This document shows positions 2,320-35,236 of a stretch of 35,236 nt of DNA, piece by piece (position 1 is the first letter of the stretch; each line of letters begins with the position of its first letter). The translations under genes were made by a program, and so were the position numbers. Below the pieces are notes generated by a model that searched no databases, was not told the origin of the DNA, and was given only the letters and a program-made list of their open reading frames with translations. Origin of the DNA: a virus (taxonomy: Duplodnaviria > Heunggongvirae > Uroviricota > Caudoviricetes); IMG/VR virus record IMGVR_UViG_2724679058_000007; one strand, written 5' to 3'.

Positions 2320-3501
2320 TTATCTCCCGATTGCAATCCATCGAGCGTAAATAAAGGCTGGTGATGATGTTGAATTTAATAATTTGAACTGAGTATTGCT
2401 GATAGGTTGAGCTGCAAAGCTATATACAGCTGAAGCGCCAGCGTTATCATAAGAAGCAACAAGCTGAACTGTACTGTAATTTGTAAAAGGTACGGGGAAA
2501 TTTATAGTCTGCGGATCTCCAATTTGACCAGAGGCTGCAATACCCCACTGGATAATAGTACCTCCTGGTAAAGATGCCCAGCCGGTACCGCTTGTAAAAC
2601 TTGACATATCCGGTATTTGTCCAGAACCTGTACCCACATTTTTTGTTGCCGCCGTTCCAAGCCCGGAAATATCAGATGATGTTGGTTTAAATCCTGTGTG
2701 GTACAACTTATACCAGTCAGAAAATGCAGTATCACTCGCTTTTATCCTCACACTAAAGTCAGGAATGGAACCGAGAGACGCACCGCAGATTTGCCACCCG
2801 GTTGAACCTGAGTTAGCAAATGAAATACCACCAGCCCACTGCCCAGGATAAGGACCGATATTATCTGCAGGGGCAAAATAATCAAAGCGACTGACGTCCA
2901 ACGTCGCCATAGTTCCGCTTACCTGGGCTGCCTTTATTCCAAGCCCCCACCCGCCATTTAAAGCAATTTTACCCGTTTTATCTGTGAAGGATGATTGCAG
3001 TGTTCCCAAACCAAGGTTTTTGACAAACAGCGCCGGGTCAGGAATATCAGCGCCGTTCTGGTCTTTGGCCAGCTTCTCCGCCAGCTTGTTCAACACAGTG
3101 GTCGCAAAATTCGGATCGTTGCCGAGGGCATCAGCCAGCTCTTTGAGCGTATCCAGCGTCTCAGGGGCGCTGCCTGCAAGCGCCGCAAGTGCTTTGGCCA
3201 CAAACTCCGTCGTCGCCAGCTTCTTGCTGTTATCGCTATTTGCAGGCGTAGGCGCTGTTGGTGTGCCGGTGAATGTCGGGCTGGCTTTCGGTGCGTACTG
3301 GGTATGCGGGTCTGCTGCCGCGATATGTTTCGCAAGGTCAGAACCGCCATTTTCAACCTGTTGCTTCAGGTACAGCGTGCGGCTGGCCAGTTGTTTACCC
3401 TGACGGTTAGAAATTCCGTCAGGCCCGCCCAGAACGGGGTCAGAGACCTCAATCTGGTAGATGCCCTCTTCCCACTGCGGGGTTTCAGGTAGGTTTGCCA
3501 T
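2320..3501 (-). CDS. Tail fibre protein (constant N-terminal part plus currently expressed variable C-terminal part)
   Basis: 393 aa, MANLPETPQWEEGIYQIEVSDPVLGGPDGISNRQGKQLASRTLYLKQQ; the hix-like site falls at about codon 160; the C-terminal two thirds are AT-rich and Gly/Ser-rich. Confidence 0.85.
   Translation of the reverse strand: MANLPETPQWEEGIYQIEVSDPVLGGPDGISNRQGKQLASRTLYLKQQVENGGSDLAKHIAAADPHTQYAPKASPTFTGTPTAPTPANSDNSKKLATTEFVAKALAALAGSAPETLDTLKELADALGNDPNFATTVLNKLAEKLAKDQNGADIPDPALFVKNLGLGTLQSSFTDKTGKIALNGGWGLGIKAAQVSGTMATLDVSRFDYFAPADNIGPYPGQWAGGISFANSGSTGWQICGASLGSIPDFSVRIKASDTAFSDWYKLYHTGFKPTSSDISGLGTAATKNVGTGSGQIPDMSSFTSGTGWASLPGGTIIQWGIAASGQIGDPQTINFPVPFTNYSTVQLVASYDNAGASAVYSFAAQPISNTQFKLLNSTSSPAFIYARWIAIGR
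3001..3025 (-). repeat. hix/gix-like invertase crossover site (right), inside the tail-fibre gene at the constant/variable junction
   Basis: Plus strand TGTTCCCAAACCAAGGTTTTTGACA; inverted copy of the 806-830 site. It encodes the shared KNLGLG motif in both tail-fibre variants. A compositional break (GC-rich constant part versus AT-rich variable part) coincides with it. Confidence 0.8.
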
Positions 3502-23549: not shown

Positions 23550-24267
23550 AGCTGCCGCCCCCCCATGTCAGATAACGGGGGGCCAGTTCGTGCAGGATGC
23601 GCTGCGGATAATGACGGTTCTCCCGCCAGTTGGCAGTGCTGCGTCCGGCATTCACCGTGGCGACATGACCAAACCAGCGGGTGCTGTCCAGCCCCTGCTG
23701 CGAGGCCAGCCTCTTGTCCCGCTGTACCCAGCCCAGACCGCCGTTATAGCCCGACAGCGTCATGGCCATACGCTCGCAGCCGTTGGCGGCGCTGACGCGC
23801 TGCCACAGCCAGCGGTCATAACTGACCAGCGCCCGGATGGCCCATGCCGGATTAAACGGCTCACGGCTGTTAAGCCCCGGCATCAGCTGGCTTATCCAGT
23901 CGGCGGTGGCGGGCATAAACTGGGCCAGCCCCTGAGCGCCAGCCGGCGAGACCGCATCAGGTCGCCAGCCGCTTTCCTGATGCAGTTGCGCGGCGAAATC
24001 GGCCACCGGCGCAGACAGTCCCCATTCAAGCCGGGCATTACGGATCACATCATCGCGATACTGCAGCGCAGCCTGCGGAGGCTGCGCTGCGCGGGCCTGA
24101 CTGAAGAAGCCGCCACACCAGAGCAGCCAGACAATCACCAGGTTGCCAGCAAGCTGCCACCAGAAGCTGTATTTATCGTTACGTGGTTCTCCGTGTCTGA
24201 TGGCGGTTACGCCCAGACCAAAGGCAAGCAGGATGATGAGGGTGATTTGAGGCCAGTTCATGGTCAC
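23539..24267 (-). CDS. Endolysin, lytic transglycosylase (SLT domain) with N-terminal hydrophobic segments
   Basis: 242 aa; N-terminus has two hydrophobic stretches (ITLIILLAFGLGVTAI, LAGNLVIVWLLWCGGFF); ESGWRPDAVSPAGAQGLAQFMPATA is a typical SLT active-site region. Confidence 0.75.
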   Translation of the reverse strand: MTMNWPQITLIILLAFGLGVTAIRHGEPRNDKYSFWWQLAGNLVIVWLLWCGGFFSQARAAQPPQAALQYRDDVIRNARLEWGLSAPVADFAAQLHQESGWRPDAVSPAGAQGLAQFMPATADWISQLMPGLNSREPFNPAWAIRALVSYDRWLWQRVSAANGCERMAMTLSGYNGGLGWVQRDKRLASQQGLDSTRWFGHVATVNAGRSTANWRENRHYPQRILHELAPRYLTWGGGSCVD

Positions 24268-24614
24268 AGTCCTGTAGCCACAGCCAGACAGACCGCTGCA
24301 ACAATCAGTGCACGGCGGATTAACGCAGCAGAAAATACAAGGTGAAGGCCGGTCTGCACAGGGAAGCGACCATCAGCCATCAGCCTGTCATCATGCTTCA
24401 GGTACTGACCGGGACGGGCTTTGGGGAAAAGCGAACGGTCAAGCCAGTAGCCCAATACTGCCGCCAGCGTGATGAGTGACAGCTTGTAGACAACCACCGG
24501 CAGCTGCTGGGGCGATACCAGACCGATGGTGCCGAGCAGCAGCACTGAGGTCAGCAGCCAGCCGCTGAGACGTGGCTTTTTAACAGGGGGAATGAATTTT
24601 TTCAGGTTTTTCAT
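24264..24614 (-). CDS. Putative holin / lysis membrane protein
   Basis: 116 aa with several hydrophobic helices; first gene of the lysis cassette; AAGGAGA 6 nt upstream of the ATG. Confidence 0.55.
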   Translation of the reverse strand: MKNLKKFIPPVKKPRLSGWLLTSVLLLGTIGLVSPQQLPVVVYKLSLITLAAVLGYWLDRSLFPKARPGQYLKHDDRLMADGRFPVQTGLHLVFSAALIRRALIVAAVCLAVATGL

Positions 24615-24745
24615 GGGTGTCTCCTTGTTGTGTGGGAGACAGCATCACAAATGTGGCGGGATACGGATTTTAAAGCGCGTTATAAGTGTTCGCAGAGGGA
24701 AGCGGCCAGAATGGTGGCACACAAAACACAGGGGAGGCAAGCACG

Positions 24746-25069
24746 ATGACTGAACCGAAACAGACCGGTCTTAAAAAAGGGTTCCTCTTTGGGATCAGAA
24801 CCGGAGAGCAGAATAAAACTTACACGCTAAGCGTGGATGCCAGTTGCCCAACCGAGGCGATTGCAGAACTGAGAAACGCGCTGACGGCGCTTGAAACGCG
24901 AAGCAGCCATTTCGCCAGCGGAGAAAACAACGTCATGATGATTGGCAATGTGGCGGCGACATCACGATATAAAGCCGTACCTAATCCTACTACTCAGTTA
25001 TCCGGCGACCAACGAAGACTGGAAGCGGAATCAGCAGTTCCCAGAACGGTTCTTCCTCACCAGTCTTAA
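24746..25069 (+). CDS. Hypothetical protein (108 aa)
   Basis: ATG preceded by GGGGAGG; MTEPKQTGLKKGFLFGIRTGEQNKTYTLSVDASCPTEAIAELRNALTALE...; its 3' end overlaps the convergent ORF 24990..25556. Confidence 0.4.
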   Translation: MTEPKQTGLKKGFLFGIRTGEQNKTYTLSVDASCPTEAIAELRNALTALETRSSHFASGENNVMMIGNVAATSRYKAVPNPTTQLSGDQRRLEAESAVPRTVLPHQS

Positions 25070-25556
25070 CCGGGGCCGCTTCTCCCGCCCAGTAAAGCCA
25101 GGCCCGGTGATATAATTCCAGCACCGGGCAATCACTGTTCAATAACCTCATATCTCCGCGATGCACCGGCTCATCTGTGATTACTTCATATATCGGTGCC
25201 GTTCTGATTTCGTCTTCGCCTCTCTCATCGGCCAGTAATGCCCGGAACTTCCTGACTTCACTCAGATGCTGACAGGCAAACAGTGACTGATAGCGGGAAG
25301 GTTTGTCAGGAAAATGGCTACGGCGAACTAACTCAAACACCAGACCGACCAGCAGACTTCTGCTGACTCCACTGTCATCTTCCATTTTAGGGCCGGGGTT
25401 ATAGAGATAGTTATGACCGTGCTTGGAAAGACCATCGGGATACATCTGATGAAGGAAAGCGGCCAGCTCCGGCGCTTCAGGTTCGTATTTTCCGGTAATT
25501 ACATGGCAAGGCGAAGGCAGACGATTAGCGGAATCAAGTGTGTAATACGTTCCCAT
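24990..25556 (-). CDS. Hypothetical protein (188 aa), accessory locus
   Basis: ORF MGTYYTLDSANRLPSPCHVITGKYEPEAPELAAFLHQMYPDGLSKHGHNYLYNPGPKMEDDSG...; no family recognised. Confidence 0.5.
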   Translation of the reverse strand: MGTYYTLDSANRLPSPCHVITGKYEPEAPELAAFLHQMYPDGLSKHGHNYLYNPGPKMEDDSGVSRSLLVGLVFELVRRSHFPDKPSRYQSLFACQHLSEVRKFRALLADERGEDEIRTAPIYEVITDEPVHRGDMRLLNSDCPVLELYHRAWLYWAGEAAPVKTGEEEPFWELLIPLPVFVGRRITE

Positions 25557-25664
25557 TCAGAAAACAATCCTTATCGAACAAACACTGCACGTAGGTAACA
25601 CATCCAGTAAATCGCGTTAATAGAAAACAGTTATCCATAAGCCTCATCCTGACAATGAAAGAAC

Positions 25665-25696
25665 GACCAGCCCGGTGCGGTAACACCAGGCTGGTC
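25665..25696. repeat. 13-bp inverted repeat with 6-bp spacer upstream of the methyltransferase gene
   Basis: GACCAGCCCGGTG cggtaa CACCAGGCTGGTC (one mismatch); additional perfect palindrome GTCTCGCGAGAC at 25741-25752; GACCAG occurs three times in the spacer. Confidence 0.5.
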
Positions 25697-25799
25697 ATCA
25701 ACCCACAGGTATGCACTGTGAGCCGACCAGGGTTCAGTCAGTCTCGCGAGACCAGACTAGCCTGCCATATTTTCACTGATTGCAAAAGGCTTACGGATA

Positions 25800-26570
25800 A
25801 TGAAAGAACAATCTTTACCCATCGTTCCATGGATTGGCGGCAAACGTCGTCTGGCTAAGCATATTCTGCCGCTGTTCCCGGCCCATACCTGCTATGTGGA
25901 GCCGTTCTGTGGGGCCGCTGCGCTCTATTTTCTTAAGACACCCAGCAAGACCGAAGTCATTAACGATATCAACGGGGAACTGGTGAACCTCTATCGGGTG
26001 GTCAAGCATCATCTGGAAGAATTTGTTCGCCAGTTCAAATGGGCGCTGGTCAGCCGTCAGATTTACAAATGGTTGCAGGATACGCCGGAAGAAACTCTCA
26101 CCGACATTCAGCGGGCGGCCCGGTTCTACTACCTGCAGAAACAGGCGTTTGGCGGCAAGGTGGCCGATCACTCGTTCGGAACCTCCACCACAAGTGCGCC
26201 GCGCTTTAACCTCCTGCGCATCGAAGAAGAACTGTCGATGGCACACCTGCGCCTGTCGAGAACGCTGATAGAGCATCTGGACTGGCACCAGTGCATAGAG
26301 CGATATGATCGCCCGCATACGCTGTTCTACTGTGACCCACCATACTGGGGAACAGAGGGCTATGGTGTGGAGTTCGGGCTGGAAAACTATGATCACATGG
26401 CAGATTTAGCGCGAAGGATCAAAGGGAAGATGATTATATCAGTGAACGATATCCCGGAAATGCGGCAGGTATTCAACGGTCTGAACATGCAGTCGGTTGA
26501 TATCAGCTACAACCTTAAGGTAACAGGTAAACCCAGCCCGAAGAAAGAGCTGGTAATTTGTAATTTTTGA
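25800..26570 (+). CDS. dam: DNA adenine (N6) methyltransferase, Dam family, orphan
   Basis: 256 aa; N-terminal PIVPWIGGKRRLAKHILPLFP, AdoMet motif EPFCGAAALYF and catalytic DPPY (FYCDPPYWG); no adjacent restriction enzyme recognised. Confidence 0.8.
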   Translation: MKEQSLPIVPWIGGKRRLAKHILPLFPAHTCYVEPFCGAAALYFLKTPSKTEVINDINGELVNLYRVVKHHLEEFVRQFKWALVSRQIYKWLQDTPEETLTDIQRAARFYYLQKQAFGGKVADHSFGTSTTSAPRFNLLRIEEELSMAHLRLSRTLIEHLDWHQCIERYDRPHTLFYCDPPYWGTEGYGVEFGLENYDHMADLARRIKGKMIISVNDIPEMRQVFNGLNMQSVDISYNLKVTGKPSPKKELVICNF

Positions 26571-26584
26571 AAGAGGTAGTTAAA

Positions 26585-26610
26585 GGTGGTGGTGCATCTG
26601 CAGCACCACC
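26585..26610. terminator. Hairpin terminator between convergent methyltransferase and lipoprotein genes
   Basis: GGTGGTGC atctgca GCACCACC, 8-bp stem; T-rich run follows on the minus strand (ACCTTTAACTACCTCTTT). Confidence 0.5.
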
Positions 26611-33062: not shown

Positions 33063-33251
33063 ATGTCCATCAAATGTTCCAACTGTAAGAAAGGTATCAC
33101 CACCCTGAAGTTCAGCGACGCCAGCGTCATCGCCTCTGGCAAATACCATGTGCCAGCCGTCCTCATCACGCTGGTATGCCCTCACTGCAGCCAGCATTAC
33201 TACACCGAAGTCCCGACCATGGAGTTCATCCCCTGCGAGGCAACAAAATGA
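33063..33251 (+). CDS. Small zinc-ribbon protein
   Basis: 62 aa with two Cys pairs (CSNCKKG ... CPHCSQH). Confidence 0.45.
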   Translation: MSIKCSNCKKGITTLKFSDASVIASGKYHVPAVLITLVCPHCSQHYYTEVPTMEFIPCEATK

Positions 33252-34220: not shown

Positions 34221-34432
34221 TGGCTGAATCTATTGTATGTTCCCTGTTCTGGTATGGTCTCGTGGGGTGGTGTACCGCTGAACTGCATCGCCGCTCAGGG
34301 TTTTACTCACGTTACAGCGGTGCCGGACACTGGATCAGTTGGGCCGTTATGTTCCTGTGCTGGCCTGTAGCGCTTCCTTTATATGTCGATTATATCGGTG
34401 GCGCAGGTAAAAGGAGTGGCGATGATGACTAG
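34217..34432 (+). CDS. Small membrane protein
   Basis: 71 aa with two hydrophobic helices (IVCSLFWYGLVGWCTA, ISWAVMFLCWPVALPLYV). Confidence 0.4.
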   Translation: MMAESIVCSLFWYGLVGWCTAELHRRSGFYSRYSGAGHWISWAVMFLCWPVALPLYVDYIGGAGKRSGDDD

Positions 34433-34850
34433 GCAGCGTTTTATTCAACTCATCCATATTGCCCGCAATGACCTCCAGATGGATGAGGATACCTACCGCC
34501 AGATGCTACAGGGGCTGACCGGCAAAGCCTCAACCAAAGGGATGGATACCACACAACTAAACCGCGTGCTGGACTCCATGAAAAAGAAAGGCTTTCGCAT
34601 TAAGTCTGCCGGGAAAGCCAGGCCCGGCTTACCGCTGGATAGCCATCCGCAGTCAAAGAAAATCCGTGCGCTATGGCTTGAAATGGCTACGGCAGGCGTC
34701 GTCCGAGACAGTTCAGAGCAGGCGCTGGCGCTATGGGTTAAACGGGAAACGGGCATCAGCGCGTTACGCTGGCTCAGCAATGAGCAAGCAAGTAGCGTGA
34801 TTGAGAAACTGAAGAAGTGGCAGCGCAGAGCTGCGGGGGTGAAGCAATGA
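34422..34850 (+). CDS. gemA: GemA-like protein (Mu gp16 family)
   Basis: Start at ATGATG with AAGGAG 6 nt upstream; MMTRQRFIQLIHIARNDLQMDEDTYRQMLQGLTGKASTKGMDTTQLNRVLDSMKKKGF. Confidence 0.6.
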   Translation: MMTRQRFIQLIHIARNDLQMDEDTYRQMLQGLTGKASTKGMDTTQLNRVLDSMKKKGFRIKSAGKARPGLPLDSHPQSKKIRALWLEMATAGVVRDSSEQALALWVKRETGISALRWLSNEQASSVIEKLKKWQRRAAGVKQ

Positions 34851-35236
34851 GCGACCTGAATCAGTTTCGTAGTAAAGGGCCGGAACTGTTGGTAGAGCTG
34901 GCACAGCATACCTCTGAGACCGTCCGCGAGATTATTGATATCGAACCCGCAGTTGCCGACCAGATTGGTCAGGCCGTAGCGAACCGCATGATGCAGGTCT
35001 GGGGCGGGCAAAACGTCTATTTCCCGATGGGCATGGTCTGGAAGGTCAGCCAGCGCGATCGGGAAATCTTTCTGGAGTTTGACGGGCGCAACCATCACGA
35101 ACTGGCCCGCAAATTTGGTGTTTCGCTACAGTGGGTTTACAGCGTGGTGAAGCGGGTCAGAAAAGAAGAACTGGATCGGATGCAGGGCAAACTGTTTGAT
35201 GGCGAACCTGATGCCGATACGGGGAAAAAGGAGTAA
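34847..35236 (+). CDS. mor: Mor/C-family transcriptional activator
   Basis: Start at MSDLNQF (ATGA overlap with the gemA-like stop); C-terminal HTH region ...REIFLEFDGRNHHELARKFGVSLQWVYSVVKRVRKEE; ends at the last base of the window. Confidence 0.65.
   Translation: MSDLNQFRSKGPELLVELAQHTSETVREIIDIEPAVADQIGQAVANRMMQVWGGQNVYFPMGMVWKVSQRDREIFLEFDGRNHHELARKFGVSLQWVYSVVKRVRKEELDRMQGKLFDGEPDADTGKKE

Follow-up and report, generated by a model that had tools for sequence, protein, structure and literature searches.

The palindromes in the 243-bp spacer upstream of the dam gene of a BcepMu-like phage are probably the stems of a conserved RNA of approximately 110 nucleotides, whose most likely part is that of a cis antisense, or divergent, regulator of dam carrying a terminator that insulates the late promoter. 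Judged by comparative sequence analysis, the element is a widespread and uncatalogued structured RNA coupled to phage dam genes.

The spacer and its surroundings

The window, i.e. the whole stretch of 35,236 nucleotides analysed here, reads as a BcepMu-like transposable phage. An 801-bp query from it (25300-26100) shows 100% identity to the record 'Klebsiella phage KP12 clone KP12_2', and there is also kinship with Escherichia phage PhiKM, which is classed under Bcepmuvirus. The minus strand carries the tail, head, terminase and lysis genes, and the plus strand carries the early operon with, in rightward order, a Ner-like gene, transposase, B, GemA and a Mor-family activator. To the right of dam lie a lipoprotein gene and then a CI-like repressor gene, both on the minus strand. 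The repressor operon of BcepMu-like phages is oriented toward the late operon. Given the gene order around it (Table 1), the spacer parts dam from the start of the late gene block. The window also has another hairpin, between dam and the lipoprotein gene.

Table 1. Positions of genes, predicted RNA elements and promoter-like motifs in the window.
Feature	Position	Strand	Description
Holin gene	24264-24614	minus	
Extended -10, TGtGATGCT	24641-24649	minus	40 nt downstream of 24686, where the matched 16-nt motif starts
Second Mor-box-like dyad, TATAA-CGCGCT-TTAAA	24669-24684	minus	Before the holin gene
188-aa ORF	24990-25556	minus	Pfam DUF2441
Spacer under study	25557-25799		Between the DUF2441 ORF and dam
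Mor-box-like dyad, ATTAA-CGCGAT-TTACT	25606-25621	written on minus	5-bp inverted repeats, GC-rich 6-bp spacer
Predicted conserved RNA core, about 109 nt	25655-25763	minus	5'-AGGCU, P1, P2, P3, P4, pyrimidine-rich tail
Tail, GUUCUUUCAU	25655-25664	minus	P2 3' strand and U-rich tract; conservation ends sharply here on the left
P4, the 13-bp inverted repeat	25665-25696	minus	GC-rich hairpin of intrinsic-terminator form
P3	25697-25727	minus	11-bp hairpin with internal loop, four G.U pairs and hypervariable 7-nt loop
P2, 5' strand GAAC	25732-25735	minus	Pairs with GUUC, 25661-25664; closes the junction holding P3 and P4 (RNAalifold)
P1	25736-25758	minus	Outer 4-bp stem, hypervariable bulge, inner palindrome stem, CGCG loop
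P0 region	25759-25791	plus	AGCCU (25759-25763), complementary to the dam Shine-Dalgarno AGGCU (25787-25791)
dam, D12-class N6-adenine DNA methyltransferase	25800-26570	plus	Pfam PF02086, E = 1.5e-27
Mor-family activator gene	34817-35236	plus	PF08765, E = 1.2e-42; preceded by GemA

The initial annotation of the spacer had listed an inverted repeat, a palindrome and a repeated hexamer, and all of these are indeed present. Namely, the inverted repeat at 25665-25696 has the arms GACCAGCCCGGTG (25665-25677) and CACCAGGCTGGTC (25684-25696) separated by 6 nt, the 12-bp palindrome GTCTCGCGAGAC at 25741-25752 is perfect, and GACCAG occurs three times on the plus strand (25665, 25725 and 25750). The arms of the repeat are imperfect, being complementary at 12 of the 13 positions; the remaining one reads C:A on the plus strand and becomes G.U when read on the minus strand. 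GACCAG also occurs once on the minus strand (25691), with approximately 0.28 occurrences expected per 243 bp from its window-wide frequency. Taken singly, such features are statistically weak, and the palindrome alone is not remarkable: the whole window contains 4 perfect 12-bp palindromes, and 80% of shuffled sequences yield a 12-bp palindrome with up to 2 mismatches. On the comparative evidence given below, it is conservation that lifts the features of the spacer above chance. We rejected GACCAG as a repeated half-site, because its second and third copies are unconserved even in close relatives (GACCAA, GACCTG), and the repetition of the hexamer is consequently best seen as incidental. No further close copy of either the 13-mer arm or the palindrome was found in the window. 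The proposed search for copies of the half-site elsewhere ended with one element per prophage and no genome-wide repeat.

A fold conserved with compensatory change on the antisense strand

In alignments with E. coli prophages and phages, similarity has an abrupt left boundary at 25655/6 (TGAAAGAAC) and extends across the spacer into dam, and the DNA to the left of this point varies from phage to phage. The block 25655-25799 is present in 556 of the 5426 complete E. coli genomes, ST131 included, where it is never annotated, as well as in dozens of IMG/VR contigs. In BcepMu-like phages the left neighbours of the element vary (the holin gene directly, DUF2441, others), with dam constant at the right, and in TW14425-type E. 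coli prophages dam is truncated and the RNA intact. We collected 40 distinct close versions of the block. Note that the invariance of the palindrome among the IMG/VR contigs is partly forced, because the retrieval pattern contained the palindrome. Across the 40 close homologues hypervariability marks the hairpin loops and one bulge, the stems are retained, and the top of the 13-bp repeat exhibits compensatory changes. In particular, out of 1253 pair cells, 1063 are Watson-Crick, 179 are G.U pairs on the minus strand and 3 are A.C, which amounts to 99.1% of cells being paired, compared with 25-51% if the partners are slid. When the region 25640-25830 is folded, the minus strand attains -82.9 kcal/mol (z = -5.7) and the plus strand -53.9 kcal/mol (z = -2.0), with the minus strand forming three hairpins, the last of which is followed by GUUCUUUCA.

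Two further explanations for the conserved block were considered and rejected. A coding role for the 67-aa ORF at 25655-25858 is at odds with the frame being broken by loop indels and the start codon being variable. A small mobile insertion with target duplication could be read from the direct repeat GACAATGAAAGAAC / GATAATGAAAGAAC, whose copies lie 145 bp apart, and was dismissed because the second copy is the dam start itself and differs in the other E. coli clade (ATGAAAATGC).

A covariance model built from the alignment of close homologues (R1) was then applied to 80 loci fetched by the dam protein, one per species. It finds a full-length match in 54 of them, always antisense to dam, in taxa that include Serratia, Photorhabdus, Xenorhabdus, Burkholderia, Iodobacter, Nitrosomonas, Variovorax, Nevskia, Geobacter and Desulfuromonas. 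In these loci 8-59 nt separate the end of the element from the first start codon of the module, which is that of dam or, if a com gene comes first, that of com. A second model (R2), made from the diverse matches, adds 16 loci for a total of approximately 70 of the 80, with all matches again antisense and with a range covering the Gamma-, Beta- and Deltaproteobacteria. For the window core itself the models give 130 bits (R1) and 109 bits (R2). In phage B3 the element lies upstream of an annotated com-dam pair, beneath two tiny 'hypothetical' ORFs; phage Mu has no copy of it.

In the distant homologues the stem sequences are very different and the palindrome is gone, with pairing nevertheless retained. 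In an alignment of 59 sequences, 93.4% of cells are paired and two-sided changes occur at 35 of the 37 pairs, there are 428 double-change cells as opposed to 116 +/- 12 after shuffling, and the covariation score is 0.611, compared with 0.224 for shuffled and at most 0.125 for slid alignments. Among the one-sided changes of the distant loci, read on the antisense strand, G.U outnumbers A.C by 297 to 46. A covariance-model alignment is fitted to its model, and the de novo alignment of 33 sequences (MAFFT and RNAalifold), which recovers P2-P4 and not P1, gives -43.7 kcal/mol with 32 pairs for the antisense strand and -21.3 kcal/mol with 19 pairs for the sense strand. In other words, these comparisons show a fold that is conserved with abundant compensatory change and that belongs to the antisense strand, where both the strand and the expression of the predicted RNA are read from the pattern of substitutions.

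The individual helices contribute to this picture as follows. The inner stem of P1 is the palindrome of the window, which is swapped for other sequences in distant homologues (e.g. GCCGUGUGCACGGU, GCUCUGAUCGGAGC) with its pairing intact, and two-sided changes are found at 9/9 of the P1 pairs. P2, which joins the P1-P3 linker to the tail, covaries between GC, CG and AU at its first position and between AU and GC at its second and third. In the upper stem of P3, CACAG/CUGUG gives way to CACUG/CAGUG, GCAG/CUGC or ACGG/CCGU in other taxa, and P4 has two-sided changes at 13/13 pairs. Within the tail, GTTCTTTCA is invariant across the 40 distinct close homologues, and the unpaired motifs AGGCU, AGCCUUGG and GUGUU..GCA are kept across bacterial classes. 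A lengthening of P1 by pairing of the 5' AGGCU with the AGCCU linker was also considered and, by inspection, rejected, the variants at the 5' end being uncompensated.

What accompanies the element? In the distant loci late genes of any kind (tail fibre, tail, holin, portal-like) occur to its left, mostly in the same direction as dam, and in many of these loci the element lies between two co-directional genes of the sense strand; in B3 it lies between tail genes. As the genes on the left vary and dam is constant, the RNA travels with dam and not with the late promoter. Comparison of the loci shows the predicted RNA and dam (or com-dam) as a portable two-part module, found in prophages of three proteobacterial classes and in phage B3, of which dam, as far as genome comparison can tell, is the conserved partner gene. 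The link to the methyltransferase that the initial annotation had proposed therefore stands, with the RNA directly upstream of dam in approximately 70 of 80 dam loci, and the part of the proposal that involved operator sites is unsupported. A search of Rfam 15 at gathering and at permissive thresholds, covering the window and ten distant loci, returned no family matching the element: the window region gave two sub-threshold chance matches only (mir-374 and int-alpA), and the matches in the distant loci lie elsewhere. Likewise, the published work that we consulted on BcepMu late promoters, sRNAs of Mu-like prophages, dam antisense RNA and the palindrome does not describe the element.

A probable terminator, a putative late promoter and the dam ribosome-binding site

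The initial annotation had argued against a terminator for want of a U-run. On the minus strand, a hairpin is in fact followed by GUUCUUUCA, invariant after P4 in close relatives, and a terminator scan of this strand flags the hairpin, with 17 pairs (9 GC) and then CTTTCATTGT; in distant homologues the tails are pyrimidine-rich. The U tract of P4 is interrupted, and it is CUGUCUCUU-like in GC-rich hosts. Owing to this imperfect tract, the termination efficiency of P4 is uncertain. More telling are the relatives without dam. In the dam-less BcepMu-like locus L068, and also in L072, P1 and the 5' half of P3 are absent, and what is retained is the 3' half of P3, the whole of P4 and the U-rich tail, placed directly after the lipoprotein stop codon, which is the last stop codon of the repressor operon, and on the same strand. 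The putative late promoter of L068 is the same as in the window. This retention of P4 and its tail supports a role of the predicted hairpin as a minus-strand terminator, and from its position we infer that P4 would insulate the late genes from transcription coming from the repressor side. In particular, P4 and the tail would end minus-strand transcription, stopping transcripts that originate on the repressor side or at the element's own start approximately 35 bp before a Mor-box late promoter, from which the DUF2441 gene and the lysis and late genes would then be transcribed. A late-gene antitermination leader (lambda Q- or HK022 put-like) was rejected, given that the dam-less relative has the late promoter without P1-P3 and that the element follows dam and not the late operon. 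A strong gyrase site or a Mu-like transposition enhancer was set aside by reasoning alone, their position and form being unfit.

The candidate activator site in the spacer is a Mor-box-like dyad approximately 35 nt past the terminator on the minus strand, which keeps a fixed distance from the element whatever gene follows. It is, incidentally, a true dyad to which a dimeric activator could bind, and one that the initial annotation had not listed. The Mor-box-like motif has 4 matches in the window against 0.37 expected. In phage Mu, the Mor site of the Pm promoter spans 16 bp, a GC-rich 6-bp spacer being flanked on either side by a 5-bp inverted repeat; it is centred near -43.5, and the promoter has a -10 and lacks a -35 (PMC4390567). 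The copy before the holin gene has just this geometry: its centre is approximately 43 bp from the inferred start site, with a -10 present and no -35, and the same arrangement of dyad and -10 is repeated in dam-less L068 and in Burkholderia phage vB_E433 (GATGAC, at equal spacing). This geometry agrees with the form of Mor/C-dependent promoters, and a Mor-family activator is encoded by the same phage, so the region 24641-24684 is a probable Mor-dependent late promoter. The half-sites in the window are TTAA-like, and the likeness to Pm is one of geometry. Unlike Pm, the copy in the spacer has the dyad with only a poor -10 on the minus strand. In plus-strand orientation, the spacer dyad together with CATCCT (25645-25650) would, on geometry alone, place a sense start at approximately 25657, the edge of conservation. 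If this start were true, dam would have a leader of 143 nt complementary to the RNA. Whether the RNA overlaps the dam mRNA would be set by the position of the dam transcription start, and such overlap would be expected with this start as well as in co-directional operons.

On the side of dam, AGCCU and AGGCU of the P0 region are separated by the A/T-rich loop CCATATTTTCAC. AGGCU is an unusual Shine-Dalgarno sequence. A full 5-bp P0 match overlapping the Shine-Dalgarno sequence is found in 31 of the 46 loci without com, P0 covaries to GAAUU/AAUUC in Paraburkholderia, and the wobble variants on the Shine-Dalgarno side slightly favour the plus, i.e. sense, strand. Taken together, these observations suggest a sense helix that could mask the ribosome-binding site and one of whose arms is complementary to the 5' end of the RNA, such that the RNA, or RNase III, might modulate the synthesis of Dam. 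Namely, the RNA would be complementary to the sense sequence just upstream of dam, and its 5' AGGCU would be the complement of the anti-Shine-Dalgarno AGCCU that is able to pair with the ribosome-binding site of dam. Because of this complementarity, the RNA is most likely a cis regulator of the amount or timing of Dam. Pairing, or cutting by RNase III, would remove or free the inhibitory arm, and both activation and repression are possible outcomes.

As for the promoter of the RNA, a strict sigma-70 search placing the start at AGGCU was passed by 1 of 43 distinct sequences, compared with approximately 1% of controls, so that a canonical sigma-70 promoter is generally not recognisable by this strict test. 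On the minus strand, AAAAT shows weak enrichment at -10 to -6 relative to AGGCU. The RNA may also start farther upstream or depend on an activator. For the window, Com-type control was rejected: the zinc-finger (CxxC) ORF at 33063-33251 has no match to Com in Pfam. B3 does have Com, as do several distant loci when inspected by eye.

Other explanations and related systems

Would the element be conserved in this way if it did not regulate dam? It could be a terminator and insulator alone, in which case it would form the structured 3' end of transcripts crossing dam on the minus strand, antisense to the gene and with no regulatory effect on it. In the window these transcripts would come from the repressor/lipoprotein operon, with P4 terminating them and P1-P3 stabilising their 3' end. 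P4 and its tail do have the form of a terminator, it is this part alone that the dam-less derivative has kept behind the last repressor-operon gene, the repressor operon of BcepMu-like phages is oriented toward the late genes, and a promoter belonging to the RNA itself is unrecognisable, all of which would fit. That said, all four helices and not only P4 are conserved with covariation, the element stays at its fixed 8-59 nt from the dam or com start in unrelated backbones, loci without a minus-strand operon downstream of dam exist, e.g. in B3, and the window already has the hairpin between dam and the lipoprotein gene, which makes this explanation an unlikely one in our view. It is very unlikely, in turn, that the structure acts on the sense strand, as a 5' UTR or intercistronic structure of the dam (or com-dam) mRNA that controls translation through the anti-Shine-Dalgarno/Shine-Dalgarno helix, similar to the Com-opened hairpin at Mu mom. 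Sense helices would carry 297 C.A mismatches where the antisense strand has G.U, and the consensus fold is only half as stable, with 19 pairs against 32. Speaking for a sense leader are the site directly upstream of the first start codon of the module, which is typical of leaders, the co-directional neighbours in many distant loci, the ability of AGCCU...AGGCU to sequester the Shine-Dalgarno sequence in the 31 of 46 loci, wobble variants that fit the sense strand, and a Mor box at -43.5 which, with the -10-like CATCCT, would lead to the start at the conservation edge near 25657. The P0 helix, however, is compatible with an antisense RNA, and the sense strand need not carry P1-P4 for P0 to form.

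The initial annotation had taken the palindromes for DNA sites of a dimeric regulator that controls dam, the divergent gene or both. Dyad symmetry is indeed seen in the inverted repeat as well as in the palindrome, a possible dam promoter (CATATT, 25766-25771) would have its -35 position overlapped by the palindrome, and the palindrome is invariant in the alignment at the E. coli level and in the 40 homologues (whose retrieval pattern contained it). Nevertheless, the comparative data already largely refute such operator sites, which we consider highly improbable. Distant homologues preserve pairing and not sequence, having swapped the palindrome and the 13-bp arms for unrelated sequences that still pair; the loops and the spacer vary in length and sequence; and the half-site has no other copy in the phage. 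What is more, nearly every one-sided change yields G.U on the minus strand, the ratio of G.U to A.C being 179:3 in close and 297:46 in distant homologues, and this strong bias is the signature of an RNA made from that strand, one that a symmetric DNA site would lack. Another suggestion is that the RNA has a function of its own, either trans-acting or protein-binding, and lies beside dam because the two cooperate, for example with the RNA inhibiting the methyltransferase, serving as its cofactor or acting in anti-defence. The junction architecture and the unpaired motifs conserved across classes agree with this, as does the intact RNA of TW14425-type prophages with a truncated dam. However, the fixed distance to the start codon and the anti-Shine-Dalgarno complementarity point to coupling in cis, and the truncated dam genes may be recent deletions; overall, we regard an independent function as very improbable. 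A bolder proposal, and a quite unlikely one, is that of a new family of structured non-coding RNAs that are functional partners of phage Dam, for instance by binding the enzyme and restraining or directing it, or as catalytic or ligand-sensing RNAs, in a role beyond simple antisense. If true, it would account for the persistence of the four-helix junction and its fixed unpaired motifs all the way from Enterobacterales to Geobacter, and for the survival of the RNA beside a truncated dam. In this connection it should be noted that a multi-helix junction kept across classes exceeds the needs of a plain antisense RNA, and this excess of structural conservation hints at some other function or partner.

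Returning to cis regulation of dam combined with insulation of the late promoter, which we take, from the comparative data, to be the most likely roles of the RNA in the window phage, several known systems offer a comparison. Cis-encoded antisense RNAs control a harmful or timed neighbour gene in Sok/hok, SymR/symE, P22 sar/ant and lambda OOP/cII. The element described here resembles them in being small and structured, in lying opposite its partner gene at the 5' end of the latter, in its terminal hairpin with a U-rich tail, and in being co-inherited with the partner as a cassette. While these RNAs are simple and restricted to certain lineages, the present element is a four-helix junction across three proteobacterial classes. 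Also unlike them, its core stops 8-59 nt before the start codon and leaves the ribosome-binding site uncovered, and it is a predicted RNA with no recognisable promoter.

Genes for orphan Dam methyltransferases rank with the commonest accessory genes that temperate phages carry. These enzymes affect the escape from restriction, and overproduction of Dam is thought to be harmful to the cell. To our knowledge, the control of their expression in phages is mostly unknown outside Mu mom. In the com-mom system of Mu, transcription starts from a C-dependent promoter and a hairpin at the start of mom is opened by Com. The parallels with the present locus are a late-expressed DNA-modification gene under layered control, an encoded activator of the Mor/C family, a com gene between the element and dam in some relatives, B3 included, and a helix that can mask the ribosome-binding site. 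The differences are that Mu lacks the element, that the window lacks a Com recognisable by Pfam, that the gene encodes a D12 Dam instead of Mom, and that the conserved structure is antisense. With its presence in approximately 70 of the 80 sampled dam loci and in approximately one tenth of complete E. coli genomes, the RNA would be a testable control element for these genes, as well as a candidate for a new RNA family.

Finally, P4 invites comparison with the intrinsic (Rho-independent) terminators that serve as insulators in temperate phages. It shares with them a 13-bp GC-rich hairpin followed by GUUCUUUCA, a position between repressor-side transcription and the late promoter, and its being kept alone in dam-less relatives. 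It differs from plain intrinsic terminators in that the U tract is interrupted, in that the tail is predicted to pair in part with an upstream strand (P2), and in that three conserved helices precede it. For the wiring of lysogeny and lysis in this group of phages, the analysis locates a predicted terminator that would shield the late operon, with a putative Mor-box late promoter just behind it.

The RNA element and dam apart

The predicted structured RNA that lies antisense just upstream of dam, the D12-class adenine methyltransferase gene, does not always accompany an intact copy of that gene. In particular, three E. coli loci of the TW14425 type (L006, L046 and L064) carry an intact RNA element although only some 100 nt of dam are left, interrupted by a frameshift and a stop codon. 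Such an arrangement could mean that the RNA does something independently of dam, or it could simply reflect a recent deletion. In the Pantoea stewartii locus L075 (about 2800-3000), dam is 98% identical. Here, unrelated DNA ending exactly at TAGCCT takes the place of the RNA gene, and upstream of dam only the anti-SD (the short stretch complementary to the dam Shine-Dalgarno), the A/T-rich stretch and the Shine-Dalgarno itself are retained.

Com-like genes and the annotation of phage B3

The RNA element and dam are separated by a zinc-finger gene resembling com (e.g. MQDIRCGNCHKKL...) in many of the distant loci, namely in L139, L143, L134, L114, L125, L129, L101, L100, L110, L111, L122 and L137, as well as in phage B3 (L155, 2834-3019). 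The RNA element lies 17-27 nt upstream of the com start in these loci, and the com-like gene overlaps the start of dam in the same manner as com overlaps mom in Mu. In B3, the hypothetical ORFs 45 and 46 are annotated on the other strand (2567-2792), overlapping the RNA element; of the two, at least ORF46 is unlikely to be a real gene. Judged by eye from its sequence, a small ORF of the window also looks like a Com-type zinc finger, its sole Pfam match being a weak, LITAF-like one.

Activators, dyads and other features of the window

Further features of the window
Feature	Position	Strand	Remarks
Gin/Hin-type DNA invertase gene (MAVIGYIRVSTIDQ...)	about 180-750	minus	read by eye
Dyad copy with -10	24641-24684		16 bp; 5-bp inverted repeats (TTAA-like) around a GC-rich 6-bp spacer
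Second dyad copy	25606-25621		as above
GC-rich hairpin GGTGGTGCA..TGCAGCACCACC	26584-26606		in 47-bp gap between convergent dam and lipoprotein genes
62-aa ORF	33063-33251		two CxxC pairs (MSIKCSNCKK...CPHC)
GemA (PF06252), then Mor-family activator (PF08765, E = 1.2e-42)	34383-35236		early operon end

GemA and Mor close the early operon in the order known from Mu, and no C-like second activator was seen within the window. The dyad copy preceding the holin gene is accompanied, at Mor-type spacing, by an extended -10 (TGtGATGCT), the two together forming a probable Mor-dependent late promoter. The Mor-box motif also has one chance match (579-594), inside the invertase region. Between both dyad copies lies the DUF2441 gene, which resembles a moron whose insertion was accompanied by duplication of the promoter motif. 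The hairpin following dam could be a bidirectional terminator.

The invertase gene adjoins tail-fibre genes of opposite orientation, which suggests an invertible host-range segment; its counterpart in KP12 is annotated as 'DNA-invertase'. The public KP12 record (OM835952.1, clone KP12_2) is classified under Vequintavirinae, whereas the genes it contains (transposase, Mor, GemA and Mu-like head genes) are those of a transposable phage of the BcepMu-like type. The record probably represents an induced prophage that was co-purified.
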